32,000 bases of DNA from Acaryochloris marina MBIC11017 (GCF_000018105.1 NC_009932.1:1-32000), one strand, 5' to 3'. Numbered from the stretch's first letter, positions 6,001 through 24,455 are shown. The notes: generated by a model not told the origin, from the letters alone. Numbers and translations are program-made.

Positions 6001-6993
6001 CTTTTCACTGTCCCCCATCACATTGATGCGATTCGCTGCCGCCAACTGCACCTGATTGCCAGTGACGTCCCCGGCAATGGCGACGTCGCCATTCACTACT
6101 GGGGTATTCAGTAGCCAAGTACGACCTTCTGCATCAACCTCCACACCGGTTGCCACTGGGATATCCCCCCCTGTTAATAGTTCTGAAAGGGATACTGCTC
6201 TGGCGTTCTCTGTTGTATCAGGATCCAGTTGGTTTACTTCCAAACTGAGCAACATATCTGGATGATTGATACGTACCCGACGTTGACCGGGTACTGCAGC
6301 CAGGGTAACTTGCCCCCCCTCAGCGGAGAGGGAGCCTGTATTCACGACCGTGCCGCCAATCAGGCTTAAGTTCTGCCCTTTTGCCACTGCTAGGTGACCG
6401 GCATTGACGATGCTACCGGGCTGGTCCGTATTAAACAACAAACTTTGAGGGGTTCCCTCTAAAGCAGCATAGTCATTGTCGCCAACGGCGTTAAACCAAC
6501 CCTTTTCAAAGCCAATTCCATCGGCAGTGGTTGCGCGAAAATCTGCAGGGACATTGATTGTGGCATTGGGACCAAACACAATCCCTGCCGGGTTCATGAG
6601 GTACAGGTTGGCATTGCTTCCCTGGACTTGAATCATGCCATTAATAATCGAGGCATCTCCTCCGTTCACGCGCCCAAGAATATTCTGAATGCCGGGATTG
6701 CTGAGAAAGGTTGCAATTTCCCCTTGGCTAAGGCCAAATTTCTTAAAGCTATGAAATAGATTGGCCCCATCGCCTGAAAGACTGCCACCACTGATGTTAA
6801 ACCGCTTACCATCAGCGGTGACAATGGTCTGAGTGCCGTTGGGTTCAGTGACAATCGATTGGGCGTGGGCTGGCTGCATCCATAAGTACACTCCCAAAAA
6901 CGGTAGCAATAGAAGTCTGGGTATAGGCCAAAGTTTCATAACAACCCTTGGATAAAGATGATTTAGACCGAAGCTGCGCTTGAGTATGCCCAT
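3094..6993 (-). CDS. Filamentous-haemagglutinin-like TpsA exoprotein: TPS domain, DUF4347-like, right-handed beta-helix, three Ig-like repeats
   Basis: TPS signature NGTQTIVTADGKRFNISGGSLSGDGANLFHSFKKFGL...NILGRVNGGDASIINGMIQV...NLYLMNPAGIVFGPNA. DUF4347-like segment LVFLDTTVPDYQRLL...AVHIVSEGDEGEFWLG...ILIYACLTA...ADVAGSTDLTG...GGNWILE. Beta-helix repeats (GGAIHNRGTLTVNNSIITGNTA..., closing DQRGANRF..DIGAVE). Three ~102-aa Ig-like repeats. The likely true start is the internal ATG at 6939 (MKLWPIPRLLLLPFLGVYLWMQPAHAQ, a signal peptide). Confidence 0.9.
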   Translation of the reverse strand: MGILKRSFGLNHLYPRVVMKLWPIPRLLLLPFLGVYLWMQPAHAQSIVTEPNGTQTIVTADGKRFNISGGSLSGDGANLFHSFKKFGLSQGEIATFLSNPGIQNILGRVNGGDASIINGMIQVQGSNANLYLMNPAGIVFGPNATINVPADFRATTADGIGFEKGWFNAVGDNDYAALEGTPQSLLFNTDQPGSIVNAGHLAVAKGQNLSLIGGTVVNTGSLSAEGGQVTLAAVPGQRRVRINHPDMLLSLEVNQLDPDTTENARAVSLSELLTGGDIPVATGVEVDAEGRTWLLNTPVVNGDVAIAGDVTGNQVQLAAANRINVMGDSEKLITTHNGQHSAPIVTRFNADGTNANELVFLDTTVPDYQRLLFGTEAGTTTVAIPVSENGIERVTSVLQQVGAVDAVHIVSEGDEGEFWLGNAYVSNETLDKYKAHFQQWGGLLSTEADILIYACLTARGPEGLALLNKIAELTHADVAGSTDLTGDTARGGNWILEQSIGSIETGSAFEATTLADYTGLLQVFTATDAASLIAAINTANGNTETDTINLANNITLAAVDNATNGANGLPSITAPEKLTINGMGNTLARDTTAPDFRLIHVALGAELEVNDITLTGGIANSGGQGDDGGAIHNRGTLTVNNSIITGNTAADDGGAISSFNTTANAVTVTINNSTLSGNTAMGNGGALSNTSFTGAGPNSTVMTVNNSTITGNNANVGGGIAQLGQNANNSAVVIVNNSTISGNTVVFGGGGIYNRGQTSLLGATITITNSTIVQNEVTNPGSSSGGILNLNFLGGANTARVTVANSIIALNTATVFPDVRRASATNSPIIDGGNNLIGVDNQGIFTTSTLVGSVATPLDPMLLPLGDYGGPTQTHAFFLDSPALNAGSDALAMAATLTTDQRGANRFNGTVDIGAVESQGYSLAVTAGNNQTTTVNTAFTTALEAQVTENFANSPLPVSGLNVTFTATPSPTGATGSFNGNPTTTVVTNATGVATAPTLTANTVAGSYVISSSSGTLTPASFNLTNTPDVPALLTISGGNDQSTTVNTAFADTLDVTVTDQFGNLVPNTTLNYSAPNTGASSTLSATTATTDSNGVASVSATGNTVAGSYVISSSSGTLAPVSFNLTNTPDVPALLTISGGNNQSTTVNTAFANTLDVTVTDQFGNLVPNTTLNYSAPSTGASSTLSATTVTTDNNGVASVSATANDTAGTFTVTATGVGVTAGNFTLTNSPIAPTTPDIPATEFLGFWTDLQELSKTSDVACGAVPTVNLEVDIDIPDVQGQTPPPEESQQALGADCP
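3385..3996 (-). repeat. Two near-identical 306-bp (102-aa) tandem coding repeats (Ig-like modules) in the FHA-like gene
   Basis: The shadow ORFs 3482-3667 and 3788-3973 are near-identical and offset by exactly 306 bp. In the protein, TPDVPALLTISGGN(D/N)QSTTVNTAFA(D/N)TLDVTVTDQFGNLVPNTTLNYSAP... occurs twice. A third, diverged copy lies upstream at about 3997-4300. Confidence 0.85.
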
Positions 6994-7751: not shown

Positions 7752-10700
7752 ATGGCATTATTTTGCGATCGCATAGCCATCACAGCGATTACCCTTACTG
7801 TTTTTTATAGCCTGCCTACGATCGCTGAGCCTCAACCTTCAACTCAAGCCTCTGACCTACGCTTCTCGCCTCGCTTCGGTATTGGCGCGAATAGCCCCAG
7901 CAGCGGTACAAACACCACCACTCGCCTCGAAACCTTTGTTCCTGTTTGGCAGAAGCCGGGTCGAGCATTGACCTTCTTCGAAGGCCGTCTCCTGCTAGAT
8001 GACCAGGGCAACCCAGGTGGAAATATTCTGTTCGGCTTCCGTCAGTATAGTGATGATCTAAAACGTATATTTGGTGGTCATCTAGGTTTTGATATTCGTA
8101 ACACCGATAATAATACCTTCCAGCAATTGAGCTTGGGTATAGAAAGCCTCGGAAAGGATATTGACCTTCACCTGAATGGGTATTGGCCCGTTGGCAGTAC
8201 TCGCCGCCAAACCAGGCAACGTATTTTTGAGGTATTGCAACTTAATGGTGACCCTCGATTTACTGGGAATATTCTACTTTTAGACTTGCTGCGGCGACGT
8301 CTGATTACGCGTCAATTTGAAGAAGCCTTGGCCGGAGTGGACTTTGAAGTTGGAAAACAACTCCTTAGTTTTAAGAATGGAGGTGATTTACGAGCATACC
8401 TAGGCCCTTACTTTCTCCATAGCAGTATTCGAGGTAATACGATTGGAGGTCGGTTGCGCTTACAGGTACGACCTACTCCTAATATCAGTGGTGGAATTGG
8501 AATTCAGCATGATGATTTTTTCGGCACCCATGTGTTGGGAAATATCACCTTTACACTCTCAGTAAATCAGCCTCAAAGCCCAGTTTCACCAGCGAACAAT
8601 GTTGTGGCACGAATGGGTGATTCAGTCATTCGCAACAACAGCATAATTGTAGATACCCCCAACACTACAGAACTTCTTGAAACTGAGACTCAAACGGTTG
8701 CAGCAATGAACCCAACCACGGGAGAGCCATGGTTTTTTCACCATGTCAACTTAGGTTTGGGCAATAGCGATGGCACCTTTGAATCACCATTTCCTAGCTT
8801 GGAAGATGCACTAGGAGTGATAAGGGGGGATGGGAATGACATCGTTTATGTAGCAAATGGGATAAATTCAGGTATTGAAGGATTTACGATTCCTGACAAG
8901 GTACAAGTTCGTTCAAGAGGAGCTGTACAGCAGATTGATGTTAACCCCATTTCATTCCCATTGCGGCCAGAGAGTGTTCTTAGGCTAGGCCAGGTTCAAC
9001 TTCCCTTCTCTGGCGATAGTAGCTTCCCTCGCATCACTAGTACCGTCAGTTTGGGGAATAACACGCTGCTCTCAGGGTTTGATGTACAGGTAACGGGTGC
9101 CCCAGCATTAGTAGCTAACAACATTACTACTGCGACTGTTATAGATAATAGTCTTGCTAGTACAAATTCAACTACCAATGGCATCTCAATCAATGGCATT
9201 AGTGGCTCACTCAATCTTGACAATAACGCGATTAATATTGATAACCCTGCGATGGCAGGAGTGGATATTAGCAATGTTAGTGCGTCTACAGGCTCAGTTC
9301 GAATTGTAGGTACCTCAGGGAGCCGCATCCAACGCACGGGAAGAGATGGAGTGGTGCTGGGAAATAATACTACCATCGCAAATTTAAACATAGCCCCTTT
9401 ACCCAACAACGTAGATTTTTCAGGCAATCGAGGCATCTTTGGCCGTAACGTTCGTAATGTTAGGGTGCAGAACAATCAGATTATTGTTATCGGGAGAGAC
9501 TTTTCTCCAGGCATCAAATTAGAGAACATAACAGGTTCTGCTGAAATTATTAATAACCAGATTACCAGGAACCCTATATTTGTTGATCCTGCTGCTCCAG
9601 GTATATCTCACGGTATTTCTCTCAGCTTATCCAACATCAATTTGGACCGTGTAGTCATCTCTGAAAACACAATTAAAACAACAGGGATCAGTACTGACGG
9701 CATTGTGATTCAGTCTTTGAATGATAGTGCTATTCAATCCGTTACTATCTCTGGAAATACGATTGAAACAAATGGAGTACAATCTGACGGCATCGTGGTT
9801 CAATCTTCCAATAATAGTACTATTCAATCCGCTAACATCTCTGGAAATACGGTGGAAACAGCAGGATTGAACTCTCAGGGTATTTCCGTTCGGCCTATCT
9901 ACAACAGTGTCATCACTACTGCTACTATCTCTGGAAACACCGTCTCAACGGATAGAATCTTTTCTTATGGCATTTTGGTTGAGCCGTTCAACAAAAGTAC
10001 TATTACTACCGCAACCATCTCTGAAAATACTGTCTCGACTACTGGAATTGCTGATGGGATCTTGCTCCGACCCGGCTATAACAGTGCTATTACCACCACA
10101 ACCATCTCTGGAAATAAAATTTCAACAGCTGGTTTAATTTCTGATGATATGGTTTTAAGACCTTTCTTTACTATTCCTAGTACAACTGCCAGTATTAATA
10201 TCAGGCCTACTACTAATAGCGTTATATCCACTGCGATCATCTCTGGAAATACCGTCTCGACAACTGGACTTGCCTATGGCATTAACGTTCAACCTTCCCA
10301 AAACGGTACAATCACCGTTGCGACTATTTCAGGTAACACTGTCTCAACGGATAGATTCAATGCTGCTGGTATTAGGGTCCAGCCATACATAGACAGCACT
10401 ATCAATAAAGCGACTATCTCTGGAAACACGGTTTCGACGTCAGGGAAAAATGCTGACGGTATCTTAGTAAGGCCTGTTGGCAATGGAGCCATCCAATCCG
10501 CTACTATTTCTAATAATAAAATCCTTCAAGCAGGGCGGGACAGTGTACGGATTCAAGCAAGACAGGATAGTTTACGGATAGGAAATTATGATGTTAATCC
10601 CATCTGTGCTGCTATTTCTGGCAATCGTAGTGATAATCCCAACGTTGCAATGGCAGGAGGGTTAGATTTTAATCTAATCTCTGCGAGGAGTCCTTTCCAG

Positions 10701-10820
10701 GTGGAAAGTTTAACAACTGTCAGTCTTGACAATAATAATGCAATCTTCAGCTTCGATGGCACGTTGGTTCCTCCTGGAACTCCTTCTAGTCCCTTTACGA
10801 ATGTAGTTAGTTGTCCCTAG
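7752..10820 (+). CDS. Inverse autotransporter (type Ve, intimin/invasin-type N-terminal beta-barrel) with a parallel beta-helix repeat passenger
   Basis: The N-terminal ~280 aa follow the intimin beta-domain pattern: ILFGFRQYSDDLKRIFGGHLGFDIRNTDNNTFQQLSLGIESLGKDIDLHLNGYWPVGS...AGVDFEVGKQL...GGRLRLQVRPTPNISGGIGIQHDDFFGTHVLGNITFTL. The passenger has ~10 repeats of 29-30 aa, 'ATISGNTVSTxG...GI.V.P..NS.I..'. A Shine-Dalgarno precedes the ATG. Confidence 0.85.
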   Translation: MALFCDRIAITAITLTVFYSLPTIAEPQPSTQASDLRFSPRFGIGANSPSSGTNTTTRLETFVPVWQKPGRALTFFEGRLLLDDQGNPGGNILFGFRQYSDDLKRIFGGHLGFDIRNTDNNTFQQLSLGIESLGKDIDLHLNGYWPVGSTRRQTRQRIFEVLQLNGDPRFTGNILLLDLLRRRLITRQFEEALAGVDFEVGKQLLSFKNGGDLRAYLGPYFLHSSIRGNTIGGRLRLQVRPTPNISGGIGIQHDDFFGTHVLGNITFTLSVNQPQSPVSPANNVVARMGDSVIRNNSIIVDTPNTTELLETETQTVAAMNPTTGEPWFFHHVNLGLGNSDGTFESPFPSLEDALGVIRGDGNDIVYVANGINSGIEGFTIPDKVQVRSRGAVQQIDVNPISFPLRPESVLRLGQVQLPFSGDSSFPRITSTVSLGNNTLLSGFDVQVTGAPALVANNITTATVIDNSLASTNSTTNGISINGISGSLNLDNNAINIDNPAMAGVDISNVSASTGSVRIVGTSGSRIQRTGRDGVVLGNNTTIANLNIAPLPNNVDFSGNRGIFGRNVRNVRVQNNQIIVIGRDFSPGIKLENITGSAEIINNQITRNPIFVDPAAPGISHGISLSLSNINLDRVVISENTIKTTGISTDGIVIQSLNDSAIQSVTISGNTIETNGVQSDGIVVQSSNNSTIQSANISGNTVETAGLNSQGISVRPIYNSVITTATISGNTVSTDRIFSYGILVEPFNKSTITTATISENTVSTTGIADGILLRPGYNSAITTTTISGNKISTAGLISDDMVLRPFFTIPSTTASINIRPTTNSVISTAIISGNTVSTTGLAYGINVQPSQNGTITVATISGNTVSTDRFNAAGIRVQPYIDSTINKATISGNTVSTSGKNADGILVRPVGNGAIQSATISNNKILQAGRDSVRIQARQDSLRIGNYDVNPICAAISGNRSDNPNVAMAGGLDFNLISARSPFQVESLTTVSLDNNNAIFSFDGTLVPPGTPSSPFTNVVSCP
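7765..7772. repeat. HIP1 octamer GCGATCGC
   Basis: Exact match read in the sequence. Confidence 0.95.
9651..10560 (+). repeat. About 10 tandem ~90-bp (29-30 aa) beta-helix coding repeats (ISGNTV/I-S/E-T...)
   Basis: Periodicity read from the translated protein: VVISENTIKTTG.., VTISGNTIETNG.., ANISGNTVETAG.., ATISGNTVSTDR.. and so on. One unit is expanded to ~45 aa. Confidence 0.7.
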
Positions 10821-11185
10821 CAACTCATTTCAGTTTTTATTTTAGAGGTTGATTGAACTGAAATCCATTCCCTGTATGTCATTCAAGCGATACAAACTAA
10901 AATAGTTATAAAGGGCTTCGGGTTTTTATTCTGTTGACCTAAACTATTGCCTTTTAATGTTCAAAACCCGAGTTACAGAACATCCTTCCTTCCTCCATAA
11001 TCTCAAAACCACGTTTCAAAAACCTTCTTATAGCAGCAAGGGTATTTTAGTAGTTATTTCTACTCCAAATAATCCCTCTTATCTGTATTACACGAAAACT
11101 TACACTAAAAAATGACCGTTTCACTCTAGACTCTGGAGTTCTTGCCAGGATTGACTTTTGGATTTCTGATGTTTGCTGAGGTCAA

Positions 11186-13273
11186 CTAGAGCAATGACTC
11201 TAAGTTATTCCGGATAGCCATAGTTGTAGAATGCTCAAGACCCAAGGTGACTACTGCGATACTCAGAGCTTGCTGAAAGCAAGAAATAGCCTCTTCATAG
11301 CGCCCTTGGTTGTTGTAGAGTCCTGCCAGGTTATTGAGGCTAATCACGACAGAGGGGTGTTCGCTGCCCAAGAGCTTCTGTTTCATCTCCAACGCTTGCA
11401 CATAGAGCGGTTCTGCTTCGCTGTAGCGCTCTTGGTTGTTGTAGAGTAATGCCAGGTTATTGAGACTTTGAGCGACATCAGGGTGTTCGCTGCCCAAGAG
11501 CTTCTGTCTCATCTCCAACGCTTGCACATTGAGCGGTTCTGCTTCACTGCAGCGCCCTTGGTTGTAGTAGAGTCCTGCCAGGTTATTGAGGCTTTGAGCG
11601 ACATCAGGGTGTTCGCTGCCCAAGAGCTTCTGTCTCATCTCCAACGCTTGCACATTGAGCGGTTCTGCTTCGCTGTAACGTCCTTGATTTTTGTAGAGTC
11701 CTGCCAGGTTATTGAGGCTAAGAGCGACATCAGGGTGTTCGCTTCCCAAGAGCTTCTTGCTCATCTCCAACCCTTGCACATAGAGCGGTTCTGCCTCGCT
11801 GTAGCGCCCTTGGTTGAAGTAGAGTAATGCCAGGTTATTGAGGCTTTGAGCGACATCGGGGTGTTCGCTGCCCAAGAGCTTCTGACTCATCTCCAACGCT
11901 TGTACCAAGAGGGGTTCTGCTTCTATGTACCGCCCTTGGTTGACGTAGAGGAATGCCAGGTTATTGAGGCTCGTTGCAACATCGGAGTGTTCGCTGCCCA
12001 ATCTCTGTCGAGTTTGTTCTAAGCATTTTTGTCTCCAGGGCAGAGATAAGCCATAGTTTCCCTGCCCTGCATAGAATCGACTGATGCCAACATAGGGCCA
12101 TATCAATTCATCGTCATTTAGTGAGTCAACCCATTGATTGATCAGTTCCTCTAAGTGAGGAATTTTTGCACTCATCTGAGCAATCACATCAATCGTTGGA
12201 CTTTCATCAATCTCCTTAGCCGCGACTACCATTCCTATACAAAAGGCTGCCTTAAGGGGTTTCCCCTGATCAGGACGCTGATTTAGTTTAATTCGGAAGT
12301 ACTCCTGCACAATTTGATGAAGCTTGTAAGTACCCTGGACTACTCGTTTGAGTAAGTTTCTAGCGATTAAACCGTCATCTCTGGTGTCTTCTAATGCATC
12401 TGGATCCTGTTCAGACAGGCAGCTTTCAACCAAGGTCCAAGGAATAGGTGCAACCGCAAACATCCCCAAGAAGCAAGCAAGTTCTTGTTCTGCCTCACTC
12501 AACTCTACCCAGCTTAATTCCAACGCAGCAGCGATACCAAACTGTGCGGTCATTCCTGATTCTCTTTCTGTCAGCGCTTTAGCATCAAGCCGCTTGGATT
12601 CAAGTCGCTTAATCAATTTATGGAGGGACCAGTCGGGCTTATTGGCTAGATACCGCCCCACTAACTCTAGTCCTAAGGGCAGGTTCCCCACCCATCTACA
12701 TAAGGCTTGGGCATCGTCGAGCTGAGGATCAATGCGCTCGGCTCCAACTAGAGTTCTCAGTAGGGATAAGGCACTCGTATCGCTCAGTTCTGTGATTGGG
12801 AGGGAATGAACGGATAGACCTAAATCCTGACGGGTTGTGATTAGAACTTTATACTGTGGATCTGATGGCGGTAAGTACGGTTCGATGGTCTCAAGGTCCA
12901 TCACATCATCAAAAATAATCAGCACCTTTCCGGTGGGCCAGTGCCCCCAGATATAACTCACTTGTTTTTCTTCATCGAGTCCATCCGGGAAGGTCAGGAC
13001 TAACTTGGTCCGGGCAAATTCGATAATTTGGGCGGCTAGCTCTTGACCTTTCACTCGCAACCAGCAGAGTCCACCCGGATAATGACCCTGATTGAGCTGG
13101 GAGATGGCATATTGCAGAGCAAGTTCGGTCTTCCCGATCCCACCCATACCTGCTAATGCAGTGAGGGCTACCGGATTGTTCTCTTGGAGGAGCTGGTGCA
13201 ATTTGTGCAGCGTTTGGTTACGACCGACAAATTTAACGACACCGCTACGAGGGAGATTATGAGGGGGACTCAC
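11186..13273 (-). CDS. STAND NTPase: NB-ARC (AP-ATPase) domain plus a C-terminal 42-aa TPR array; no N-terminal effector domain in this ORF
   Basis: Walker A LAGMGGIGKTELALQYA, Walker B KVLIIFDDV, LITTRQ, and GLPL-type GNLPLGLELVGRYL. Six TPR units of the form HPDVAQSLNNLAxLYxNQGRYSEAEPLxVQALEMxQKLLGSE. The start in the ORF track is a GTG (13271-13273), and the frame is open for 46 codons further upstream with no start codon. Confidence 0.85.
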   Translation of the reverse strand: MSPPHNLPRSGVVKFVGRNQTLHKLHQLLQENNPVALTALAGMGGIGKTELALQYAISQLNQGHYPGGLCWLRVKGQELAAQIIEFARTKLVLTFPDGLDEEKQVSYIWGHWPTGKVLIIFDDVMDLETIEPYLPPSDPQYKVLITTRQDLGLSVHSLPITELSDTSALSLLRTLVGAERIDPQLDDAQALCRWVGNLPLGLELVGRYLANKPDWSLHKLIKRLESKRLDAKALTERESGMTAQFGIAAALELSWVELSEAEQELACFLGMFAVAPIPWTLVESCLSEQDPDALEDTRDDGLIARNLLKRVVQGTYKLHQIVQEYFRIKLNQRPDQGKPLKAAFCIGMVVAAKEIDESPTIDVIAQMSAKIPHLEELINQWVDSLNDDELIWPYVGISRFYAGQGNYGLSLPWRQKCLEQTRQRLGSEHSDVATSLNNLAFLYVNQGRYIEAEPLLVQALEMSQKLLGSEHPDVAQSLNNLALLYFNQGRYSEAEPLYVQGLEMSKKLLGSEHPDVALSLNNLAGLYKNQGRYSEAEPLNVQALEMRQKLLGSEHPDVAQSLNNLAGLYYNQGRCSEAEPLNVQALEMRQKLLGSEHPDVAQSLNNLALLYNNQERYSEAEPLYVQALEMKQKLLGSEHPSVVISLNNLAGLYNNQGRYEEAISCFQQALSIAVVTLGLEHSTTMAIRNNLESLL
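11189..11989 (-). repeat. Tandem 126-bp (42-aa) TPR coding repeats, six units plus a partial one, central units near-identical
   Basis: First unit (HSDVATSL...) begins at nt 11989. Units 2-5 (about 11360-11863) differ at only a few positions, which gives the periodic plus-strand shadow ORFs 11231-11449 and 11468-11827. Confidence 0.85.
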
Positions 13274-13311
13274 CTGGGAAGAAGGCGAGGCTTCTGATCC
13301 CTGACTCTGAT

Positions 13312-13360
13312 AACTCTCCGTTGGTGGGCTGAGTCCTGACGGAGAGTTGTCTACTTTTTT
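13312..13360 (-). promoter_or_regulatory. Candidate programmed -1 ribosomal frameshift cassette: A_AAA_AAG heptamer, UAG, 5-nt spacer, 10-bp hairpin
   Basis: Minus-strand mRNA reads ...CUA ACA AAA AAG UAG AC AACUCUCCGU-(17 nt)-ACGGAGAGUU. The heptamer is at 13354-13360, in the X_XXY_YYZ phase of the TIR ORF. The stop is at 13351-13353. Stem arms are 13339-13348 and 13312-13321, perfectly complementary. The downstream NB-ARC ORF is in the -1 frame. Confidence 0.45.
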
Positions 13361-14493
13361 GTTAGGGACTCTACCGCCCTCCGTATCCCATTGACAACAT
13401 CCAAGAAAGCTTCATCGCGATCCGCCCATTTCGTCACGGGCTTGGCATCTTTAGGTAATATCTGAAGCTTACTGAAGGGTGACCCTTGCCAGTCACTGGG
13501 ACGCAGAATAATAGGGATGACTCGGGCCGTGCCTTCGTTATGTCGGTCCATCGCTCTTTGCATCTCAATGTCGTAGCAATAGTCAGAGGCCATAAAGGGT
13601 GGGCTGACCAGTAGCAGAATGATTTGAGCAGATTCTAGATGGCTGTCGATTTTTGTTTTCCATTCTTCCCCGGCTTCGATGTCTCTATCATGCCAATCTG
13701 CAATTTTCCCCTGGCGTTTCAGGTTGGAAAGATGGGTGACTAGCTCTTTGCGCAAATCATCGTCTTCATGGGAATAGGAAATAAAGACCTCTAAGGGGTT
13801 GTTGGCGTCTGGATTCATGGGAGAAGGTGTGGGTGTTGGAGGAGTTTGAGCATTGCTTTTATCCTGATTCTTAGTTTCCTCTGTAACGGGCTTTTTGATC
13901 AGAACCGGGGTGAGATGTTCTTCAATACCTTCCATGCGGATAGAGGCACAGCCCAGGTTGAAGGCAAACTCCACATCTCGACCAGAACCCAGGGCATCAT
14001 AGAATCCCACGGCAAAGGAGATCGCCGCTTTATCCTGGATCGCCCGTTTCATGCCGATGACGTAGGGAATATGTTCTGAGATGGCTTTTGCTTGCACCTC
14101 GGTGTAGCAGCCATTGAGGACCACACAGCGCAGTTGATCGGCAAACAGACTAAACAGGTCTGCAATCGCTTCACCACTGACCAATTGGGTGTTGCCACTG
14201 ACATCTTCAAAGACCAAGCCCTCATCCCCTTCCCCATGACCTGAGAAATGAACGATCTGGGGATTCAGATCCAGCATGGCCCGCTGAATATCACGGGGAC
14301 GGACTGCCAGGCGCTGTTCAAGCTGGAACTCATCTCGATGTTGTGCCCGCTGTAAACCCTCATCAATATCCCTTAACTCCTGATCCAATCGGAGAGGCTG
14401 TGTATCTTTGGGATTCGCTGCAAGGACAAGAATGGTTTGGGCAGTCATAATGGCAGGGCAGATAAATTCGGGCAGAGATAGTGGAACGCTCAA
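13351..14493 (-). CDS. Two-effector-domain protein: N-terminal short caspase/CHAT-like (His-Cys dyad) domain plus C-terminal TIR domain
   Basis: The N-terminal ~190 aa contain IVHFSGHGEGD (His86) and CVVLNGCYT (Cys129), a CHAT/caspase-like dyad context. The TIR signature is LEVFISYSHEDDDLRKELVTHL...AQIILLLVSPPFMASDYCYDIEMQRA (candidate catalytic Glu present)...VIPIILRP. The track start is a TTG; the ATG at 14448 (MTAQTILVLAANP, aligning with the paralog N-terminus) is more likely. Confidence 0.85.
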   Translation of the reverse strand: MSVPLSLPEFICPAIMTAQTILVLAANPKDTQPLRLDQELRDIDEGLQRAQHRDEFQLEQRLAVRPRDIQRAMLDLNPQIVHFSGHGEGDEGLVFEDVSGNTQLVSGEAIADLFSLFADQLRCVVLNGCYTEVQAKAISEHIPYVIGMKRAIQDKAAISFAVGFYDALGSGRDVEFAFNLGCASIRMEGIEEHLTPVLIKKPVTEETKNQDKSNAQTPPTPTPSPMNPDANNPLEVFISYSHEDDDLRKELVTHLSNLKRQGKIADWHDRDIEAGEEWKTKIDSHLESAQIILLLVSPPFMASDYCYDIEMQRAMDRHNEGTARVIPIILRPSDWQGSPFSKLQILPKDAKPVTKWADRDEAFLDVVNGIRRAVESLTKK

Positions 14494-14583
14494 TGATTGA
14501 AATGCGACGTGGATGTCCTTCGGTTCTGAGAGAACACCCCAAACGTTGAGGCAGGCATTGAAGGGAGATTAGAACGGTTTAAA

Positions 14584-17500
14584 TCAAGAGATGACCTCCC
14601 CATCGCCTGTGAAGTTGGGGCCTTCTAGCCGCAGAAAGTAAAGCTGTCCCCCATAATCTCCAGCAACAACTGTGCAACCATCTAGGGCAATCTCACAACA
14701 TCGAAATGCACCTTCTCCGGTGAAGCTCATCACTTCCATGCCTGTCTCCAGGTCCCACACCTTGAGGGTACTGTCCCCAGACGCGGAGACCACGGTTTGG
14801 CCATCGGGGCTGATGCTCACGCCAGTGACAAGTGAAGTATGTCCTATGAGGGTGCGCTGCTCCTGGCCCGTCGCCAGGTCCCACACCTTCAGGGTATTGT
14901 CCCAAGACCCTGAGACCACGGTTTGGCCATCGGGGCTGATGCTCACACCAGTGACAAGCGAAGTATGTCCTGTGAGGGTACGCTGCTCCTCGCCCGTCTC
15001 CAGGCCCCACACCTTCAGGGTATTGTCCCCAGAAGCGGAGACCACGGTTTCACCATCGGGGCTGATGCTCACACCAGTGACAAGTGAAGTATGTCCTGTG
15101 AGGGTGCGCTGCTCTTGGCGCGTCGCCAGGTCCCATACCTTCAGGGTATTGTCCCCAGAAGCGGAGACCACGGTTTGGCTATCGGGGCTGATGCTCTCGC
15201 CAGTGACAGAGCCAGTATGTCCTATAAGAGTGCATAGTTTCTTTCCAGTCTTTAGGTTCCACACCTTGAGGGTATTGTCCCTAGACGCGGAGACCACGGT
15301 TTGGCCATCGGGGCTGATGCTCACGCCAGTGACATATTCTGTATGTCCTATAAGGGTGCATAGTTTCTTTCCAGTCTTTAGGTTCCACACCTTGAGGGTA
15401 TTGTCCCTAGACGCGGAGACCACGGTTTGGCCATCGGGGCTGATGCTCACACCAGTGACAGATGAAGTATGTCCCTTGAGGGTGTGATGCTCATTTCCAG
15501 TCTTTAGGGACCACACCTTGAGGGTATTATCACTAGACGAGGAGACGATGGTTTGGCCATTGGGGCAAATGCTGACGTCCCTTACAAAGTCAGTATGTCC
15601 TGTGAGGGTGCCATGCTCATTTCCAGTCTTTAGGGACCACACCCTGATGGTATTGTCCAAAGACGCAGAGACAACAGTTTGACCATCGAGGCTGATGCTC
15701 ATGCTATAGACAAAATCAGTATGTCCTGTGAGGGTGCGCTGCTCATTTCCCGTCTCCAAGACCCACACCTTCAGGGTCTTGTCCCTAGACGCGGAGACGA
15801 TGGTTTGGCTATCGGGGCTGATGCTCACATCAAAGACAGATGAAGTATGTCCCTTGAGGGTGCGCTGCTCATTTCCTGTCTCCAAGTCCCACACCTTAAG
15901 GGTCTTGTCCAAAGACGCAGAGACAACAGTTTGGCCATCAGGGCTGATACTGACGCCAGTGACAGATGAAGTATGTCCTATGAGAGTGCGCTGTTCCTCG
16001 CCCGTCTCCAGCTCCCACACCTTCAGGGTATTATCACTAGACGCGGAGACGACGGTTTGGCCATCGGGGCTGATACTGACACCAGTGACAGATGAAGTAT
16101 GCCCTGTGAGAGTGCGTAGCTCCCTTCCCGTCTCCAAGTCCCACACCTTCAGGGTCTTGTCCCTAGACGCAGAGACGACGGTTTGGCCACACGGGCTAAT
16201 GCTCACACGCCTGACAAAGTTAGTATGTCCTGTGAGGGTACGTAGCTCCTCGCCCGTCGCCAAGTCCCACACCTTGAGGGTATGGTCCCTAGACGCAGAG
16301 ACGACGGTTTGGCCATCGGGGCTGATGCTCACGCCAGTGACAGAGTCAGTATGTCCTGTGAGGGTGCGCACTAATGCTCCCCCCGCTTGGTTGAGGTGGG
16401 GGAATAGACACCGTATCCAGCACTCTCCCTGTCCCTGAGCCAAAGATTGAGTCAAAGCGGTCATATCCGGTGAATTTTGACTCAACAAACGCCCATAGAG
16501 CTGACTGCGAAGCTGCTCAGGATGCTGATTTAAGACATGGCTGGATAACCGCAATCCACTTTGGACTATGTTTAGGTCTTTGTCCCTGGGTAACGTCTCA
16601 TAGTCCAATAGCAGCGCATTGATATCGGTGACTCCCAATTTGCGTTGCATCCAACGATAGTCCCAGAGTAATTGGCGTAACTCATCGGTGCGTTCTGCCT
16701 GCTTGAGGTGATGGGCCAAATGCTCATAGAAATACCCATCCTTTGGTCCACGATGCCACCCCTCAGTGCAGCTCTGCTGATAAGCCTCCAGAAGTTCCTG
16801 ATGCAATGCTTTTTCGTCGGCCTGCTGGGCCTGTAAATAATCCTGCTGTAAGTCATGGAGGCTGACTTGCCGCTGAGGATAGTCCCCCTCTAGCCGCAGC
16901 ATACCTTTACTCGATAAGGTCGTTAGGATTTTGCCCGCATCTCGCTCCTTTAATGCTCCGGTATATTGCCATAGGCGAACAATGACTGCTTCAGGAATCA
17001 ATTCATCGGCTGGAAACACTGCCAGTTCTTGATACCGTTCGGCAGCGATGGGGTTGGTTTCTGCTAAGACTGTTGCACTGACATGCAGGGCTTTGAAGAC
17101 ATCGGGGTAGGAATAATGACTAAACTGTTTTTGGATAAATTCAAGATCTGAATCTTGTAAGGCACTGAGGACATGGGGCCATGGGGTTAAATCCCGCACC
17201 ATGGCACCGCATTGGGCCAGGGCTAAGGGCAAGTTTCCACATTCTCTTGCTACCGCCTGGGCTTGGGAAGGCAGTTCTGATATAGAGACGCCCACCCAAG
17301 CAGCTAATAACTCCAGCGCCTGATCGTCATTGAGTACTGACAGGGAAAAGTCAGTGGCTCCTAATCCCGTGATTAATTCTGAGTCACGGGTTGTTACCAC
17401 CAAGGTACTTTGATGTCCTAGGACATTGAAGACTTCAGCATCATCGATGCGCCAGACATCATCTAGGATCAATAGACTTTGGCGTCCCTGCCATAGGGTT

Positions 17501-18465
17501 TGAAGTCGGGTTTTCCCTTCATTGATATCTTCAAATACCTGGCGTTCACCACAAAGGGCTTCTGCTAGATCGGTTTGCTGGGCCAGCAGGTTGGGTTCTA
17601 TCCCCACGGTTAGCCAATAAATCCCATCAGGGAAGGCTGCTTGAACTTGAGGGTCATAGGCTAGGGCTGCGGCCAACACCGATTTGCCAATACCGCCCAT
17701 GCCCTGGACACCAATGCGTTGCTGATGCCCCGTCATCACTACGGGCTGAGCTAGATTGTTGAGGACTTTCTCTCTCAGGGCTTTTAGGGTCTGAGGACGA
17801 GGTAAAAAGTGGGGGGGTAACTCTGGCACTCTCCACAGCTTTTCAGGGGGCGGTTGTTCTGATAAGGGTTGGAGGGGTTCGGTTTGAATACTGGATTTTT
17901 GGACTAAGACTGGGGTGTGGGATTCGGGGAAGCCCTCGATTTGAATGGCACTGCGTCCTAGTTCAAAGGCAAATTCAATATCTCGGCCTGCACCCAAGGC
18001 ATCGTAGAAACCCACGGCAAAGGCCTGGGCTGCTTCGTTGCTGATTTCCTGCTGCATACCCACCACATAGTCAATATGTTGGGCGATGGCTTGGGCTTGC
18101 TCCTGGGTATAACATCCATTCAGAATGACGCAGTGGATATCCTCAGCAAACAGAGTAAACAAACCTGCGAGAGCTGCACCTGTGACGAGTTTGGGATTGC
18201 CTAATTCATCTTCAAAGAAGAGTCCTGCTTCACCTTCTCCCCGACCAGCGAAGTGAATTATCTGAGGAGTTTCATCCAATAATGCCCGTTGAATATCTTT
18301 AGTGCGTACATCCAGGCAGGGGCTTAGAGTGAACTGATCTCGATGCTCAGATCTGCGTAACCCGTTTTTAATGTCGCGTAATTCTCGTCCGACTTGGCGC
18401 AATCCATCGGGGTTGCTGGCAAGGAATAGAATGGTTTGCTGGTCTGGTGGGTGCGGACTCGTCAT
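14584..18465 (-). CDS. STAND/NLR-like protein: CHAT-like N-domain (catalytic His replaced by Arg), NB-ARC NTPase, 14 WD40 blades
   Basis: The N-terminal ~190 aa are paralogous to the TIR protein's N-domain (QTILFLASNP...IIHFAGRGEGE...CVILNGCYT...AVGFYDALGAGRDIEFAFELG). Walker A GVQGMGGIGKSVLAAALA, Walker B LLILDDVW, VVTTRD, and GLPL-type CGNLPLALAQCG. There are 13 canonical 42-aa WD40 repeats (LTGHTSSVTGVSISPDGQTVVSASxDNTLKVWDLETGEEQRT) plus one degenerate closing blade. Confidence 0.9.
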   Translation of the reverse strand: MTSPHPPDQQTILFLASNPDGLRQVGRELRDIKNGLRRSEHRDQFTLSPCLDVRTKDIQRALLDETPQIIHFAGRGEGEAGLFFEDELGNPKLVTGAALAGLFTLFAEDIHCVILNGCYTQEQAQAIAQHIDYVVGMQQEISNEAAQAFAVGFYDALGAGRDIEFAFELGRSAIQIEGFPESHTPVLVQKSSIQTEPLQPLSEQPPPEKLWRVPELPPHFLPRPQTLKALREKVLNNLAQPVVMTGHQQRIGVQGMGGIGKSVLAAALAYDPQVQAAFPDGIYWLTVGIEPNLLAQQTDLAEALCGERQVFEDINEGKTRLQTLWQGRQSLLILDDVWRIDDAEVFNVLGHQSTLVVTTRDSELITGLGATDFSLSVLNDDQALELLAAWVGVSISELPSQAQAVARECGNLPLALAQCGAMVRDLTPWPHVLSALQDSDLEFIQKQFSHYSYPDVFKALHVSATVLAETNPIAAERYQELAVFPADELIPEAVIVRLWQYTGALKERDAGKILTTLSSKGMLRLEGDYPQRQVSLHDLQQDYLQAQQADEKALHQELLEAYQQSCTEGWHRGPKDGYFYEHLAHHLKQAERTDELRQLLWDYRWMQRKLGVTDINALLLDYETLPRDKDLNIVQSGLRLSSHVLNQHPEQLRSQLYGRLLSQNSPDMTALTQSLAQGQGECWIRCLFPHLNQAGGALVRTLTGHTDSVTGVSISPDGQTVVSASRDHTLKVWDLATGEELRTLTGHTNFVRRVSISPCGQTVVSASRDKTLKVWDLETGRELRTLTGHTSSVTGVSISPDGQTVVSASSDNTLKVWELETGEEQRTLIGHTSSVTGVSISPDGQTVVSASLDKTLKVWDLETGNEQRTLKGHTSSVFDVSISPDSQTIVSASRDKTLKVWVLETGNEQRTLTGHTDFVYSMSISLDGQTVVSASLDNTIRVWSLKTGNEHGTLTGHTDFVRDVSICPNGQTIVSSSSDNTLKVWSLKTGNEHHTLKGHTSSVTGVSISPDGQTVVSASRDNTLKVWNLKTGKKLCTLIGHTEYVTGVSISPDGQTVVSASRDNTLKVWNLKTGKKLCTLIGHTGSVTGESISPDSQTVVSASGDNTLKVWDLATRQEQRTLTGHTSLVTGVSISPDGETVVSASGDNTLKVWGLETGEEQRTLTGHTSLVTGVSISPDGQTVVSGSWDNTLKVWDLATGQEQRTLIGHTSLVTGVSISPDGQTVVSASGDSTLKVWDLETGMEVMSFTGEGAFRCCEIALDGCTVVAGDYGGQLYFLRLEGPNFTGDGEVIS
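14725..16362 (-). repeat. 13 tandem 126-bp WD40 coding repeats with very high inter-unit identity
   Basis: The first blade starts at nt 16362 (checked against the DNA: CTC ACA GGA CAT ACT GAC TCT, i.e. LTGHTDS). Period is 126 bp. Units 8 and 9 are almost identical. The long periodic antisense shadow ORFs (14672-15487, 15728-16438) follow from this. Confidence 0.9.
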
Positions 18466-18777
18466 TCAGCGTTAATCTATGGGATATTTTGTTGTCTTTT
18501 TTCAATGGGGTTGAGCGTTTAGAAATGACTGCCTGCAATAGATAGCGAATGATGACGGAGGGCTATTTTGAAATTTAATTTAATCGCATCTAAAATTATC
18601 GTCACTTTTGATATGCTTTACGCAATTATTAAGGATATTTCTGTAATCTAGGACGTTGGTGGGAATGGAAATAATTGCTTTTTTAAGGGCTTTTTAATGG
18701 CTCACAAATTTGATTGAGTCCTGTCAGCCTCCTGATTTTTATGGTCTATCACGGGTATTGATCCAACAGAACGAACC

Positions 18778-19305
18778 ATGCCACTTCCCCCTAACCCAAT
18801 CTGTCTCCAATGCATCGACTATTCCCGAAGGGAAGCAAAGCGAGTTCATGGGCCGCAAGGGGATGGCTGCTGGACGGATAATCGGTGCGATCGCAAACGA
18901 CATCACTACCGTCACCGCAAGGAAAGCAATGCTAAGCGCCGAGGAGAATACGCTAACCAGAAAGCAATAACAACCCCAGCAAAAACCACTGAAACCTTCT
19001 CAATTCCTGTTCAAGCACCTCCCGTGGCTTTGCTCTATCTCTACAAAGAAAAGCCCAAGGATGCCCATCTCCATGCTCTGGCCGTTAGTGTCTGGCAAGG
19101 GAGCGAGAAGTTAGCAGAAATTGAGACTGTCCACTGCATGGGCATGACCAATACTCAGGTGAATCGATACTTGAAAGAGGTATTGCAGGTACTAAGAGAA
19201 AGGTACGGCATCACGGAGTTTGAACCCCCGATTCGCATGGAGCCTTCTGAGTGTGAGATCTCGGATTGTCCACTGAAGGATAAGCTCCATGTTCAAACAG
19301 CTTGA
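18778..19305 (+). CDS. Hypothetical protein with an N-terminal Cys4 (CxxC...C-x5-C) basic region
   Basis: 175-aa ORF: PICLQCIDYSRREAKRVHGPQGDGCWTDNRCDRKRHHYRHRK..., then a globular-looking C-terminal part (LHALAVSVWQGSEKLAEIETVHCMGMTNTQVNRYLKEVLQVLRERYGITEF). Divergent from the WD40-STAND gene. I recognise no family. Confidence 0.4.
   Translation: MPLPPNPICLQCIDYSRREAKRVHGPQGDGCWTDNRCDRKRHHYRHRKESNAKRRGEYANQKAITTPAKTTETFSIPVQAPPVALLYLYKEKPKDAHLHALAVSVWQGSEKLAEIETVHCMGMTNTQVNRYLKEVLQVLRERYGITEFEPPIRMEPSECEISDCPLKDKLHVQTA
18887..18894. repeat. HIP1 octamer GCGATCGC
   Basis: Exact match read in the sequence. Confidence 0.95.
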
Positions 19306-19474
19306 GCTAGATTTTGCTAGTACGTTGGCTTCTGCTTTGGATGAACCGGAGCAGGCTGATATTTCTCTGATGTGTGCATCGTTGGATCAGCATTTGCAGG
19401 GTCGATCTACCCATGAACAGCTTCGATTAGCTGGTAAGAAATTGTCAAGGGTGCAAACTCCAAGAATGGATTAG
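19289..19474 (+). CDS. Hypothetical small protein (61 aa); overlaps the upstream ORF by 17 nt
   Basis: ORF only (MFKQLELDFASTLASALDEPEQADISLM...). The overlap suggests translational coupling if it is real. Confidence 0.25.
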   Translation: MFKQLELDFASTLASALDEPEQADISLMCASLDQHLQGRSTHEQLRLAGKKLSRVQTPRMD

Positions 19475-19880
19475 ACCTCTTGCAATATTCGTTTCATGGT
19501 GTGTTACGAACTCAGTAAATGCCGTGATCTGACTTAGATTTTTTGTCTTCTACTATATCGGTAACTGAATCATGCAAGAGGTCTATTGACTACCTCAAGG
19601 TTCAAAAATCCTTTATCGCCAATTACAATGAGCGTCGTCAGTAACCACAATATATGGAGAGTTCTCATACAGAGGAAGCGTGTGATTTGTTTGTTGCCAA
19701 ACGACAGAAGAACAAAGGGATACATTGTTCAGAAGCCTCTGCTGATGCTCTTGCTGCGATGAAGACTGTTAAGTTAAATCAGACATGGGAGCATCTACTG
19801 GGTTGACCAGTAAATTCTGCCTCTCGTTTCAGCCCCTTAACCTAGACCTTTTGGCCATTAACTGGGCTATTTATACGTTG

Positions 19881-21591: not shown

Positions 21592-23472
21592 ATGACCGAG
21601 CCAGCAGTTCACCCAGACTATCGACAGGGAATTGTCCGTATCGTTAGAGTCAGTGATGATGATGATAAGGTTATCGAGAAAGTCATTGGAACGGGCTTTT
21701 ACCTGAGTGGACGATACATCATTACTTGTGCCCATGTGGTTAAAGAGACACTCCACATCGACACCGCGACAGAGTTTACATCCGTGGAGGTTGCCGAGGG
21801 TCGGGATATCTATGTTCAATTCAACTGCATTGAACGAAACGCTGACCCCTTAGCCACACGGGTGGTTCCTTATAGTTGGCGGCTCCATGATGAAGATCTC
21901 GTCTTACTAAAACTCCAAGTGTCTCCACCACCCGGCGTTTCACCCAGTCCAATAACGCCAACTATCACCTCATACTATGACCATCCTTTTAAGGTTTTCG
22001 GCTATCCCAACGAAGATGGCCATTGGGCACAGGGTAAGTTATCTGGGGAAAATGATCGCCAGTGGATTGAAATGTATGGTGAAGATGAGCAATGCATTAG
22101 AATACAGCCCGGTTACAGTGGTTCTCCCGTTTGGGATGTTACGTTAAGTACGATTGTTGGCATGACCGTGGCGACCCTCGTCGAAGAAGATTCAGAACTC
22201 TACGATAATCCTGAGTCGAAAATTGGATATATGATTCCTTACCGACGACTTTTACCCCTCATACAGGAGATTGAGGTTCAGTTACTTCTCGACTTGCTTA
22301 AACCCCATCAGAAAGCGGTTGAGGATCACCTACAGGAGGCTTATGGGATCTACCACCCCATATCTGAAGATCCTCCAAGTGCTCTCGCTGACAAGCTCAG
22401 GGCAGCCATGAAGGCTAAGAAACTCCCCCACTTAATGGCTTGTCTCCTTCTCCCAGAGGCTCAAGCCCCGGAGACATTAAATCAATCTCTACGGCAATGG
22501 TTTTCAGATCGTGGGTATGACATTGAACAATATAAGTTCCAAGCGGATCAAGATTACAAAGCTCACTCTCCAGAGGATCATGAAGATAAGCAGCCTCATT
22601 TACTTTTCTGGGTCCAAGATCAAGGAGCACTCTACAATGTTCAAGCTCTGTTAATCAAAGATGCGGAGTCCTACAATCCACGCAAATCCCTTGGTTGTGA
22701 CCGTTTACTAGCCCCAGGTCAATTTGATGAGGCTCTCCCCTATGAAAAATTAGAGGAGCTTCTTATTGCCTGTCTTCAAGAATGTTCTGTTCGAGGGGTG
22801 CCAGCGAACCAAAAGCTGATTGTAGAACTGTTGCTCCCGATTAAACTGCTCAATAAGGCCGTGGAGCATTGGCAGGCTGAGTCAGCAGGAGAAGATGATT
22901 TCCTTTGTTTGCCAGAATCGATCGGTTTTCGGACCCAAGTGGTGATCCGGGCCGCAGATCGCCTTCGGGCATCTCAGGATCGCAAACGCAGAGACTATTG
23001 GTATGCTGAATGGAAAAATTATCAAAAATTAAAAGAGAAACGGGCTGAAAACTGTCTGTCCTCTGGGGATGACTTGCCCCCTCAACAACTGATGGCTAGG
23101 TTGAACACTATTCAACAGGTCGGTTTATATCTCACGGAGCCTCCCACCGAAATGGCTCCAAAGACCTCTTGGACTGGAGTGCTTTTTAGCTCAGTTGCTC
23201 CCATTGCTGCTTTATGGCCTCGGCAAAAACCTAAAAACATTGACTGTTCCCAAGAATGTTGCGAGCTATTAAGTCACCCGCTATGCGAATTGCCATTTCA
23301 AATCCATTGTTGCCGTAGTCAGGCTCACGGGACTGACACTGAGGACCATCTGGGCCACCATTTGTCTTTGATGTGGGAGAATCCCCATATGATCCCTCCC
23401 AAAGTTGCCCAGCGAGATCCTGAACCTGACCCAGCGTTAACTCCAACAATTGACCATCCTTCTGAGGTTTAA
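21592..23472 (+). CDS. Trypsin-like serine protease fused to a large C-terminal VMAP-C-like (vWA-MoxR-associated) domain
   Basis: Catalytic triad contexts are present: GTGFYLSGRYIITCAHVV (His), EDLVLLKL (Asp), QPGYSGSPVWD (Ser). The C-terminal ~350 aa include LIVELLLPIKLLNKAVEHWQAE...FRTQVVIRAADRL, resembling the VMAP-C pattern as I recall it. Confidence 0.85.
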   Translation: MTEPAVHPDYRQGIVRIVRVSDDDDKVIEKVIGTGFYLSGRYIITCAHVVKETLHIDTATEFTSVEVAEGRDIYVQFNCIERNADPLATRVVPYSWRLHDEDLVLLKLQVSPPPGVSPSPITPTITSYYDHPFKVFGYPNEDGHWAQGKLSGENDRQWIEMYGEDEQCIRIQPGYSGSPVWDVTLSTIVGMTVATLVEEDSELYDNPESKIGYMIPYRRLLPLIQEIEVQLLLDLLKPHQKAVEDHLQEAYGIYHPISEDPPSALADKLRAAMKAKKLPHLMACLLLPEAQAPETLNQSLRQWFSDRGYDIEQYKFQADQDYKAHSPEDHEDKQPHLLFWVQDQGALYNVQALLIKDAESYNPRKSLGCDRLLAPGQFDEALPYEKLEELLIACLQECSVRGVPANQKLIVELLLPIKLLNKAVEHWQAESAGEDDFLCLPESIGFRTQVVIRAADRLRASQDRKRRDYWYAEWKNYQKLKEKRAENCLSSGDDLPPQQLMARLNTIQQVGLYLTEPPTEMAPKTSWTGVLFSSVAPIAALWPRQKPKNIDCSQECCELLSHPLCELPFQIHCCRSQAHGTDTEDHLGHHLSLMWENPHMIPPKVAQRDPEPDPALTPTIDHPSEV

Positions 23473-23475
23473 GCG

Positions 23476-24447: not shown

Positions 24448-24455
24448 GATTATCC

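Follow-up and report, generated by a model that had tools for sequence, protein, structure and literature searches.

We sought to understand how the products of three adjacent genes, which together encode caspase-like, TIR, NB-ARC, WD40 and TPR modules, could be coupled to one another in a 32,000-nucleotide stretch of DNA from Acaryochloris marina MBIC11017 (NC_009932.1:1–32000, the whole of which is referred to hereafter as the window). An earlier note on this DNA had described three co-directional minus-strand open reading frames (ORFs), termed A, B and C here, separated by gaps of 90 bp (A/B) and 77 bp (B/C), and had raised a possible frameshift coupling; the coordinates and gaps are exact, Pfam confirms all of the modules, and the coupling has become the strongest and most novel feature of the locus, with a slippery heptamer, a stop codon and a hairpin at the B/C junction. 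This junction appears, from its sequence and conservation, to be a dnaX-type −1 ribosomal frameshift signal that would couple an effector gene (B) to a sensor gene (C). As the best explanation of the whole, we regard it as likely that the locus is a plasmid-borne STAND (NLR-like) conflict module, in which a fusion made by frameshifting is accompanied by an adaptor, the product of gene A. The argument draws on the following features.

14584–18465, minus strand: gene A, Apaf-1-like STAND sensor with a probable pseudo-CHAT domain, NB-ARC, APAF1_C helical domain and ~14 WD40 blades; 1293 aa
13351–14448, minus strand: gene B, CHAT (caspase-like) domain, disordered linker and TIR domain; 365-aa zero-frame product
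13351–14493, minus strand: longest ORF of gene B; 380 aa
13354–13360, minus strand: slippery heptamer A_AAA_AAG, read in the B frame as (AC)A AAA AAG and followed by the stop TAG at 13351–13353
13312–13348, minus strand: putative stimulatory hairpin, with arms at 13339–13348 (AACTCTCCGT) and 13312–13321 (ACGGAGAGTT)
13274–13353, minus strand: linker found in the −1 frame only, VDNSPSGLSPPTESYQSQGSEASPSSQ, leading from B to C in the predicted trans-frame product
11186–13273, minus strand: ORF C, NB-ARC and TPR (six to seven 42-aa repeats); 695 aa from a GTG

Gene B ends ...ACA AAA AAG TAG, which is the heptamer of dnaX and of the IS3 insertion sequences placed in the zero frame with the stop immediately after it. 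The hairpin begins 5 nt past the heptamer and comprises a perfect 10-bp stem and a 17-nt loop, with no T-tract after it. From 13411, which is 17 codons before the heptamer, the −1 frame stays open through a Ser/Pro-rich linker and into the NB-ARC domain of C (Pfam NB-ARC at residues 19–231, E 8e−16, together with seven TPR_12 stretches).

Relatives were gathered from species-representative genomes and metagenomes by homology to B only, the heptamer being no criterion, and each of 68 distinct B-type termini was scored. A_AAA_AAG followed by a stop is present at 26/68, and a long −1 ORF lies beyond 23 of these 26 as compared with 9 of the 42 termini without a heptamer (Fisher p 5e−8). Of those nine, five vary this arrangement: in two (L025, L101) the heptamer is displaced to 1–5 codons before the stop, and in three (L035, ~2058; L037, ~11068; L108, ~7098) the 3′ end of B reads ..A(A/C)C CCT TAG, a strong hairpin comes straight after the stop and the −1 frame holds an A-type NB-ARC, A_AAA_AAG being absent. 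These three possibly use a different slip site, either A_AAC_CCU or P-site slippage at C_CCU before UAG. Past the slip at the heptamer loci, the −1 frame always begins KKV..., runs through a linker of 20–42 codons in which the phase is never broken, and always enters a P-loop NTPase, which may be of C-type NB-ARC–TPR, A-type NB-ARC–WD40 (L029, L036), nSTAND1/AAA_16-like or iSTAND (L027) type. The sensors joined to this one effector-plus-signal cassette therefore belong to at least four families.

The codon before AAA AAG is NNA in 26/26 cases, spanning eight codons and seven amino acids, where the background of third-position A in the same genes is 22% and the codons flanking NNA are unbiased. 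The lysine pair of the heptamer is invariably AAA then AAG (general usage of the two codons is 255:200), and at loci that no longer have the −1 ORF the heptamer is disrupted but the Lys/Arg residues remain (AGG AAG in L093, AAG AAG in L095). This conservation of NNA AAA AAG, taken with heptamer decay, therefore indicates that it is the nucleotide sequence, and not the peptide, that is under selection. The A-run at the slip site is A6 (A9 in L102), and the presence of a Shine–Dalgarno-like enhancer upstream of it is inconsistent across loci. At the Nostoc-type termini L015, L017, L020, L056, L091 and L092, B ends early at a new stop (..NSL TAA) that precedes a relic of the heptamer, tCAAAAAAGTAGAT, and there is no −1 ORF; this looks like the fossil of a frameshift cassette after loss of its NTPase partner.

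The hairpin is likewise a property of the heptamer loci, its stem starting 3–7 nt (mostly 5 nt) past the heptamer. Over the 50 nt after the stop, the mean minimum free energy is −15.3 kcal/mol at heptamer termini vs −6.5 kcal/mol at other B termini (p 9e−9), and the z-scores against dinucleotide shuffles are −2.5 and −0.4, respectively. The stems comprise at least 10 unrelated sequences (e.g., ATCGTCCTC/GAGGACGAT, GGTTCTCCGC/GCGGAGAACC, GGGGCAACGGA/TCCGTTGCCCC and GGTCTACT/AGTAGACC). Because variable loop lengths preclude a reliable MAFFT alignment, we compared duplexes formed in cis and in trans: the 5′ arm pairs with its own 3′ arm at −17.1 kcal/mol, but with those of other loci at −11.2 kcal/mol (p 9e−7).

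The gene that would be coupled in this way encodes a predicted active effector. Pfam places a CHAT domain at residues 34–174 of B (E 4e−9) and a TIR_2 domain at 236–343 (E 1e−17), and the most likely start is the ATG at 14448 (giving 365 aa), which is shared with more than 100 orthologs and replaces the start at 14493 given previously. The caspase/CHAT fold that the earlier note had proposed is borne out by an AlphaFold model built with 40 homologs (mean pLDDT, the per-residue model confidence, 80; residues 190–215 form a disordered linker), the N-terminal half of which superimposes on the SAVED-CHAT protease 8tl0 (Foldseek E 1e−11, root-mean-square deviation 2.8 Å, 29% identity). A profile search also returns 8tl0 (E 4e−22), aligning HFsGHG/LNgC of B with HFIGHG/LNAC, and the N-domain is accordingly modeled as a caspase-hemoglobinase fold. 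Foldseek matches of the C-terminal half are plant, animal and bacterial TIRs, including RPP1, SARM1, ThsB and SPARTA TIRs, and a profile match to the CRISPR-associated NADase Cat1 aligns the catalytic Glu. His71 (HFSGHG), Cys114 (LNGCY) and the TIR residue Glu295 are invariant across 40 B proteins, a pattern that predicts a caspase-like CHAT protease joined to an NADase-type TIR.

Stand-alone CHAT-TIR proteins of ~365 aa form a large annotated cyanobacterial family (more than 4900 matches, the top 120 sharing at least 54% identity). Effector-associated domains (EADs) are present in some members, and these lie within VMAP or iSTAND systems (L005, L009), with fusions to EAD1 or other EAD types in P0016, P0031 and L009. 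Two further loci are of note in their own right. In L007 (13785–16426), a 584-aa CHAT...TIR protein has its caspase His replaced (HFSGSG) while still ending A_AAA_AAG TAA with a hairpin, the −1 frame there encoding an AAA_16/nSTAND1-like NTPase that is followed by an nSTAND1 gene. In L024 (10634–12919), four tandem TIR-type ORFs lie 3′ of a CHAT-TIR gene.

Gene A has the composition of an AP-ATPase/Apaf-1-like STAND, with a Pfam CHAT match at residues 21–165 (E 6e−6, partial), NB-ARC at 232–463 (E 3e−28), the Apaf-1 helical domain APAF1_C at 552–625 (E 1e−12) and WD40 propellers (13 matches plus one degenerate last blade); the CARD of Apaf-1 is absent, the CHAT-like domain standing in its place. 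The NB-ARC motifs reported previously are present in the translations (GMGGIGKS/T, LILDDVW/IIFDDVM, TTR and GNLPL), as is the paralogy of the N-domains of A and B, which are 58% identical over 183 aa (E 9e−79) and share a ~190-aa domain that is CHAT, with no Pfam EAD. The closest relatives of A are cyanobacterial. Its catalytic His is absent, FAGRG (Arg) replacing the FSGHG of B. The peptide HFSGHG had served as the seed of the genome and metagenome scans, which could therefore not show His loss in A, and this loss was traced in a separate search for A homologs: within the A clade (at least 62% identity) the position is R, S, N or Q, varying even among close strains, while the Cys motif and the remaining CHAT fold are conserved, and more distant CHAT-NB-ARC-WD40 proteins retain HFSGHG. 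Two A-clade ortholog loci were uninformative (the gene in L168 is at a contig end; in L169, where a TIR fragment lies downstream, the assembly is broken up).

Because the fold is kept while the catalytic His drifts, the N-domain of A is, on this residue pattern, probably a pseudo-protease adaptor or interaction module rather than an effector. The earlier notion of two sensors sharing one effector family accordingly gives way to one predicted active effector and one probable pseudo-protease adaptor. Caspase-fold domains act as dimers or filaments, and because the CHAT-like domain of A is a paralog of that of B, A may recruit B through it.

Both sensors carry repeat arrays of the same period at the DNA level: the WD40 array of A (14744–16369) and the TPR array of C (11298–12001) are each 126-nt tandem repeats, of 83% and 88% DNA identity, respectively, with no indels. 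Copy number differs among the plasmid copies of the island (A is 1080–1332 aa, C ~695–890 aa), which suggests ongoing expansion and contraction; because repeat number differs between these copies, the pattern fits rapidly diversifying sensors.

In Apaf-1, Avs proteins and plant TIR-NLRs (TNLs), ligand binding triggers oligomerization dependent on nucleoside triphosphate (NTP), and it is by analogy with these that we infer the steps beyond the conserved signal. The three ORFs would yield four proteins. Most ribosomes would stop at the TAG of B and release free CHAT-TIR of 365 aa; a fraction, of a size to be set by the efficiency of the signal, would slip −1 on A_AAA_AAG under stimulation by the hairpin 5 nt downstream, and read the Ser/Pro-rich linker into C, giving a CHAT-TIR-NB-ARC-TPR protein of ~1090 aa (predicted trans-frame junction peptide VDNSPSGLSPPTESYQSQGSEASPSSQVSPPHNLPR). 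This predicted fusion would be a complete effector–NTPase–sensor STAND protein. The product of A would be a second, Apaf-1-like sensor (NB-ARC, HD2 and a double WD40 propeller), whose His-less CHAT domain could act as a homotypic adaptor that captures free B, so that a trigger sensed by WD40 uses the effector of B, much as a CARD recruits a caspase or FLIP pairs with caspase-8; free B could also extend or amplify sensor assemblies. A ligand on the TPR or WD40 arrays, the presumed trigger, would drive NTP-dependent oligomerization and hence clustering of CHAT and TIR domains, the presumed output being proteolysis, together with NAD+ cleavage or signaling, and growth arrest or death of the invaded cell. 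More broadly, we propose tentatively, and with slightly more doubt than belief, that −1 frameshifting is a conserved and modular form of NLR wiring, in which a portable cassette placed before at least four unrelated STAND/iSTAND families sets a fixed ratio of free to fused effector, and the free effector is shared with an Apaf-1-like sensor via a pseudo-caspase adaptor.

The locus is of Acaryochloris plasmid type, and relatives carry it on plasmids. Over its whole 7.3 kb, the island has matches on four Acaryochloris plasmids, at ~85–86% identity. Seven Acaryochloris copies and one distant metagenomic relative retain the A–B–C order, which is kept in CCMEE 5410 (L001), on plasmids of A. marina S15 and strain “Moss Beach” (L170–L172), and in the metagenomic relative (L006, where B is only 72% identical and the end of the upstream gene resembles A); the absence of synteny that the earlier note had named as a refutation is therefore not what is seen. 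An exact-sequence lookup of B gave no match, and orthologs from Acaryochloris sp. CCMEE 5410 (92% identity) and A. marina (89% identity) were used instead; for ORF C, there is an A. marina RefSeq protein with 100% identity.

Such a context, with plasmid-borne relatives and a VMAP system ~3 kb away, favors the conflict island put forward previously, within which a specifically anti-phage function is conjecture. The molecular reading could hold and the role still be another, such as plasmid competition or addiction, kin discrimination, or social or multicellular programmed cell death, an option that we consider unlikely while taking it seriously. The close copies all lie on plasmids beside partition, toxin–antitoxin, transposase and Tn7-like genes, Kaur et al link systems of this kind to a multicellular habit (PMC7159879), and PADLOC, a check suggested at the outset, calls no system at the locus or its neighbors, returning component matches only (ThsB for the TIR of B, and “chat” models). 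On the other side, tested STAND, TIR and caspase-like relatives act on phage (Avs, Thoeris and type IV Thoeris, as cited in PMC13581612), and the neighboring VMAP system suggests a defense island. Taken together, the observation made in the earlier note is confirmed and its interpretation partly supported.

Returning to the junction, we consider it improbable that there is no recoding, with A, B and C translated separately, C from an internal TTG or GTG or from a non-canonical codon (ATA), and the A-rich end of B and the hairpin serving mRNA stability, processing or termination–reinitiation coupling. NCBI does start C at a TTG (P0121, 671 aa), many cyanobacterial genes lack a Shine–Dalgarno sequence, and at other loci C-type paralogs follow a small gene and are translated in the ordinary way. 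Against this reading stands the conserved N-terminus of C, NLPRSG..FVGR, which a TTG start would remove although it is present in homologs. A canonical start upstream of this segment exists in the window copy only, 1/7 of the Acaryochloris copies (a GTG without a Shine–Dalgarno sequence); the same position is ATA, GCA or GAA in the others, and the GTG at 13273 from which C had been read is therefore not a conserved start. L171 has no ATG, GTG or TTG within 60 codons, and C start annotations elsewhere fall on a non-canonical ATA (CCMEE 5410), on the TTG 17 residues before the P-loop, or on a Met within GMGGIGK. Across the 24 codons upstream of the TTG, the ratio of nonsynonymous to synonymous substitution (dN/dS) is 0–0.37 in the −1 frame vs 0.6–2.5 in the other two frames, comparable to the ~0.2 of the C NB-ARC body. 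Because of this purifying selection in the −1 frame, we take the NLPRSG..FVGR segment to be translated, and the slip site is the only conserved route into it. Separate translation would also leave unexplained the NNA AAA AAG pattern over eight codons, the −1 phase held over linkers of 20–42 codons, and the decay of the heptamer.

Several points weigh against a frameshift-coupled module of this kind. The GTG of the window copy lies 27 codons after the heptamer, and the TTG 17 aa before the P-loop that NCBI uses is kept in all but one copy; some independent initiation of C may occur, especially in the window copy. The GC content of the downstream region is 0.54 at heptamer loci vs 0.40 at non-heptamer loci, and at three heptamer loci (L089, L094, L097) the −1 ORF is truncated. 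The loci are phylogenetically related, so that the p-values given above overstate independence. The efficiency of A_AAA_AAG hinges on the host tRNA-Lys repertoire, and would be higher if tRNA-Lys(CUU) were lacking. Finally, the trans-frame B–C protein is a prediction from sequence, and the recruitment of B by the pseudo-CHAT domain of A is wholly our own inference.

A frameshift by the ribosome is also to be distinguished from transcriptional slippage, whereby RNA polymerase adds one A on the A-run and the same fusion protein results; such slippage replaces ribosomal frameshifting in some dnaX and IS genes (PMC5009743), and the site here is a homopolymer (A6, and A9 in L102). We judge this very improbable, in that A6 is short for efficient slippage, and an invariable G at position 7 with a covarying hairpin ~5 nt downstream is what characterizes −1 frameshifting by the ribosome and not slippage by the polymerase. 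Least credible of all is that B–C reflects pseudogene decay or an error of assembly, with a homopolymer indel splitting what had been one fused CHAT-TIR-NB-ARC-TPR gene: homopolymer runs are indeed hotspots of indels and sequencing errors, some copies are visibly fragmented (L171 on pMB06; L169) and rare single-ORF TIR-NB-ARC-TPR relatives exist (P0144, P0240), but the same arrangement recurs in 26 independent assemblies and lineages down to ~55% B identity, the C ORFs of 700–1100 aa are intact with dN/dS ~0.2, the heptamer always has the zero-frame stop immediately after it, and the hairpin, too, is conserved.

A ribosomal −1 frameshift at the B/C junction would resemble known cases closely. 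Like dnaX and IS3/IS911 orfA-orfB, it has the identical heptamer A_AAA_AAG with a stem-loop ~5 nt downstream, and two products in a fixed ratio would arise from one mRNA; like IS3 elements and the phage tail chaperones G/GT, it has a zero-frame stop just past the slip site and a large −1 C-terminal extension. It is unlike the dnaX/IS3 type in its host, an immune-type effector/STAND pair rather than a gene of replication, transposition or phage assembly, and in having a product that is so far predicted. An Rfam scan of 11000–19500 returned no family at E ≤ 1, frameshift elements included, and a scan for promoters and terminators found nothing above shuffles and no terminator in the A/B or B/C gaps. 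Stop-codon readthrough from A into B, considered separately, is ruled out by two in-frame stops within the A/B gap.

The domain architecture and parts list are already known. Caspase-like and TIR effectors with STAND and iSTAND NTPases have been described in cyanobacteria (Kaur et al, 2020; PMC7159879), Apaf-1-like STANDs that carry a caspase-like domain at the N-terminus have been noted in cyanobacteria (PMC13581612), and because of these reports and the size of the CHAT-TIR family (more than 4900 matches), the earlier statement that a caspase-like, TIR and STAND combination was undescribed was too strong. The pseudo-protease status of A and the frameshift coupling, in contrast, are not mentioned in the literature searched: a term search of Kaur 2020 and of the 2026 STAND survey found neither, nor do the title and abstract of Kaur 2021 mention them. 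No report of recoding in TIR or STAND genes was found either, including in GeneTack, the Atkins 2016 review and a 2025 systematic frameshifting preprint, although this coverage is incomplete and an earlier description is possible.

Gene A resembles the Apaf-1-like STANDs (PMC13581612) and AP-ATPases in its NB-ARC, APAF1_C and double WD40 propeller, with a caspase-like domain replacing CARD; it differs in that the A-clade His is lost, making an adaptor likelier than “a more direct effector”, and in that A is always followed by a CHAT-TIR gene predicted to be active. The NTP-dependent systems of Kaur, Burroughs, Iyer and Aravind (PMC7159879, PMC8195603) likewise combine caspase-like and TIR effectors with STAND or iSTAND NTPases in cyanobacteria. 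In those systems, a domain common to the NTPase and a separate effector implies homotypic coupling, which the paralogous domains of A and B may parallel; further likenesses are the B relatives with EAD1 and the VMAP system in the same window. Here, unlike in those systems, the common domain is the (pseudo)protease itself rather than a Death-like EAD, and the second coupling would be translational (the word “frameshift” has 0 occurrences in PMC7159879).

With Avs and the plant TIR-NLRs, the predicted fusion shares an N-terminal effector, a central STAND NTPase and a C-terminal repeat sensor, together with a TIR that would be activated by oligomerization; it would differ in its NB-ARC/AP-ATPase type of NTPase, its dual effector (protease plus TIR), and isoforms made by frameshifting rather than splicing. 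Neither A nor C matches a PADLOC Avs model at E ≤ 0.01, and the likeness to Avs is one of architecture only. In plants, TNL genes such as N and RPS4 give truncated TIR isoforms beside the full-length receptor via alternative splicing.

SAVED-CHAT (8tl0), the closest solved structure to the N-domain of B, has its His/Cys dyad aligned with that of B. In type IV Thoeris, a TIR signal activates a caspase-like protease (Rousset 2025, as cited in PMC13581612), a case in bacterial immunity of a functional link between TIR and caspase-like activities. Unlike these systems, the locus has no SAVED sensor, carries TIR and CHAT on one polypeptide and, as far as is visible, would be controlled by a STAND NTPase rather than by a receptor for cyclic nucleotides or cADPR isomers. 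B matches the PADLOC ThsB model PDLC00420 at 5e−61, and no ThsA-like gene (SIR2/Macro-SLOG) is among the window ORFs scanned, so that the locus does not qualify as Thoeris.

STAND/NLR immune proteins are usually viewed as single polypeptides or simple operons. A conserved frameshift would give prokaryotic innate immunity a translational layer of stoichiometry control; immune receptor genes would thereby gain their first example of recoding, and the truncated and full-length isoform pairs of plant TIR-NLRs a prokaryotic counterpart. Such coupling would also account for hundreds of cyanobacterial NB-ARC, nSTAND and iSTAND genes that seem “effector-less”, truncated or provided with non-canonical starts, and would call for an annotation correction, NCBI currently trimming the conserved N-terminus of C. 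If A recruits B as proposed, the pair would form a bacterial apoptosome-like recruitment platform. The His-less CHAT on an Apaf-1-like partner suggests that caspase-fold adaptors preceded or paralleled CARD-type recruitment, and in this way bears on the bacterial origin of apoptosome logic.

We rejected the idea that C-type NTPases are frameshift-coupled in general: upstream of the paralogs L173–L176 is a 145-aa gene or some other gene, and their own start codon is an ordinary GTG. On Acaryochloris plasmids, the NB-ARC-TPR paralogs L173 (2748–5081), L174 (2738–6083) and L175 (3024–5957) follow a hypothetical gene of ~145 aa. In L173 and L174 the C-terminal motif of this gene (..DNAKGWQTKVEGGTAYIG..) reappears in the N-terminus of the NTPase, a shared-adaptor logic like that of EADs, and in L175 the GTG start of the NTPase adjoins the TGA stop.

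Beyond the three ORFs, a divergent gene lies ~310 bp upstream of A:

18778–19305, plus strand: hypothetical gene, 175 aa, kept in L001 and L170–L172

Its product has no Pfam or PADLOC match, and the gene stands beside plasmid partition genes; it adjoins the island in all of the Acaryochloris copies and is a possible, though doubtful, part of the system. Further along the plus strand, at 21592–29206 and ~3 kb from the island, is a complete Kaur-type VMAP–MoxR–vWA/FGE-sulfatase system (PMC7159879), comprising a Trypsin-VMAP-M1-VMAP-C protein (626 aa), a MoxR-like AAA protein (323 aa), a 955-aa protein with an FGE-sulfatase end and two further FGE-sulfatase genes; no PADLOC system model matched it. 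Other island copies are flanked by ParA, HicAB, IS630 and Tn7-like genes. In CCMEE 5410 (L001, 13813–18441), a Tn7-like tnsA/B-tniB-tniQ set is directly downstream of C, and in S15 an IS630 transposase is found there; because of this difference, we place the island at an insertion hotspot for mobile elements.

Elsewhere in the window, positions 1001–3000 have a GC content of 0.28–0.34, as against ~0.48 in the remainder. Adjacent to this low-GC stretch, the minus strand at 3094–6993 encodes a 1299-aa TPS/DUF4347/Big_1 exoprotein of two-partner-secretion type, and the plus strand at 7752–10820 encodes a repeat-rich, beta-helix-like protein of 1022 aa.

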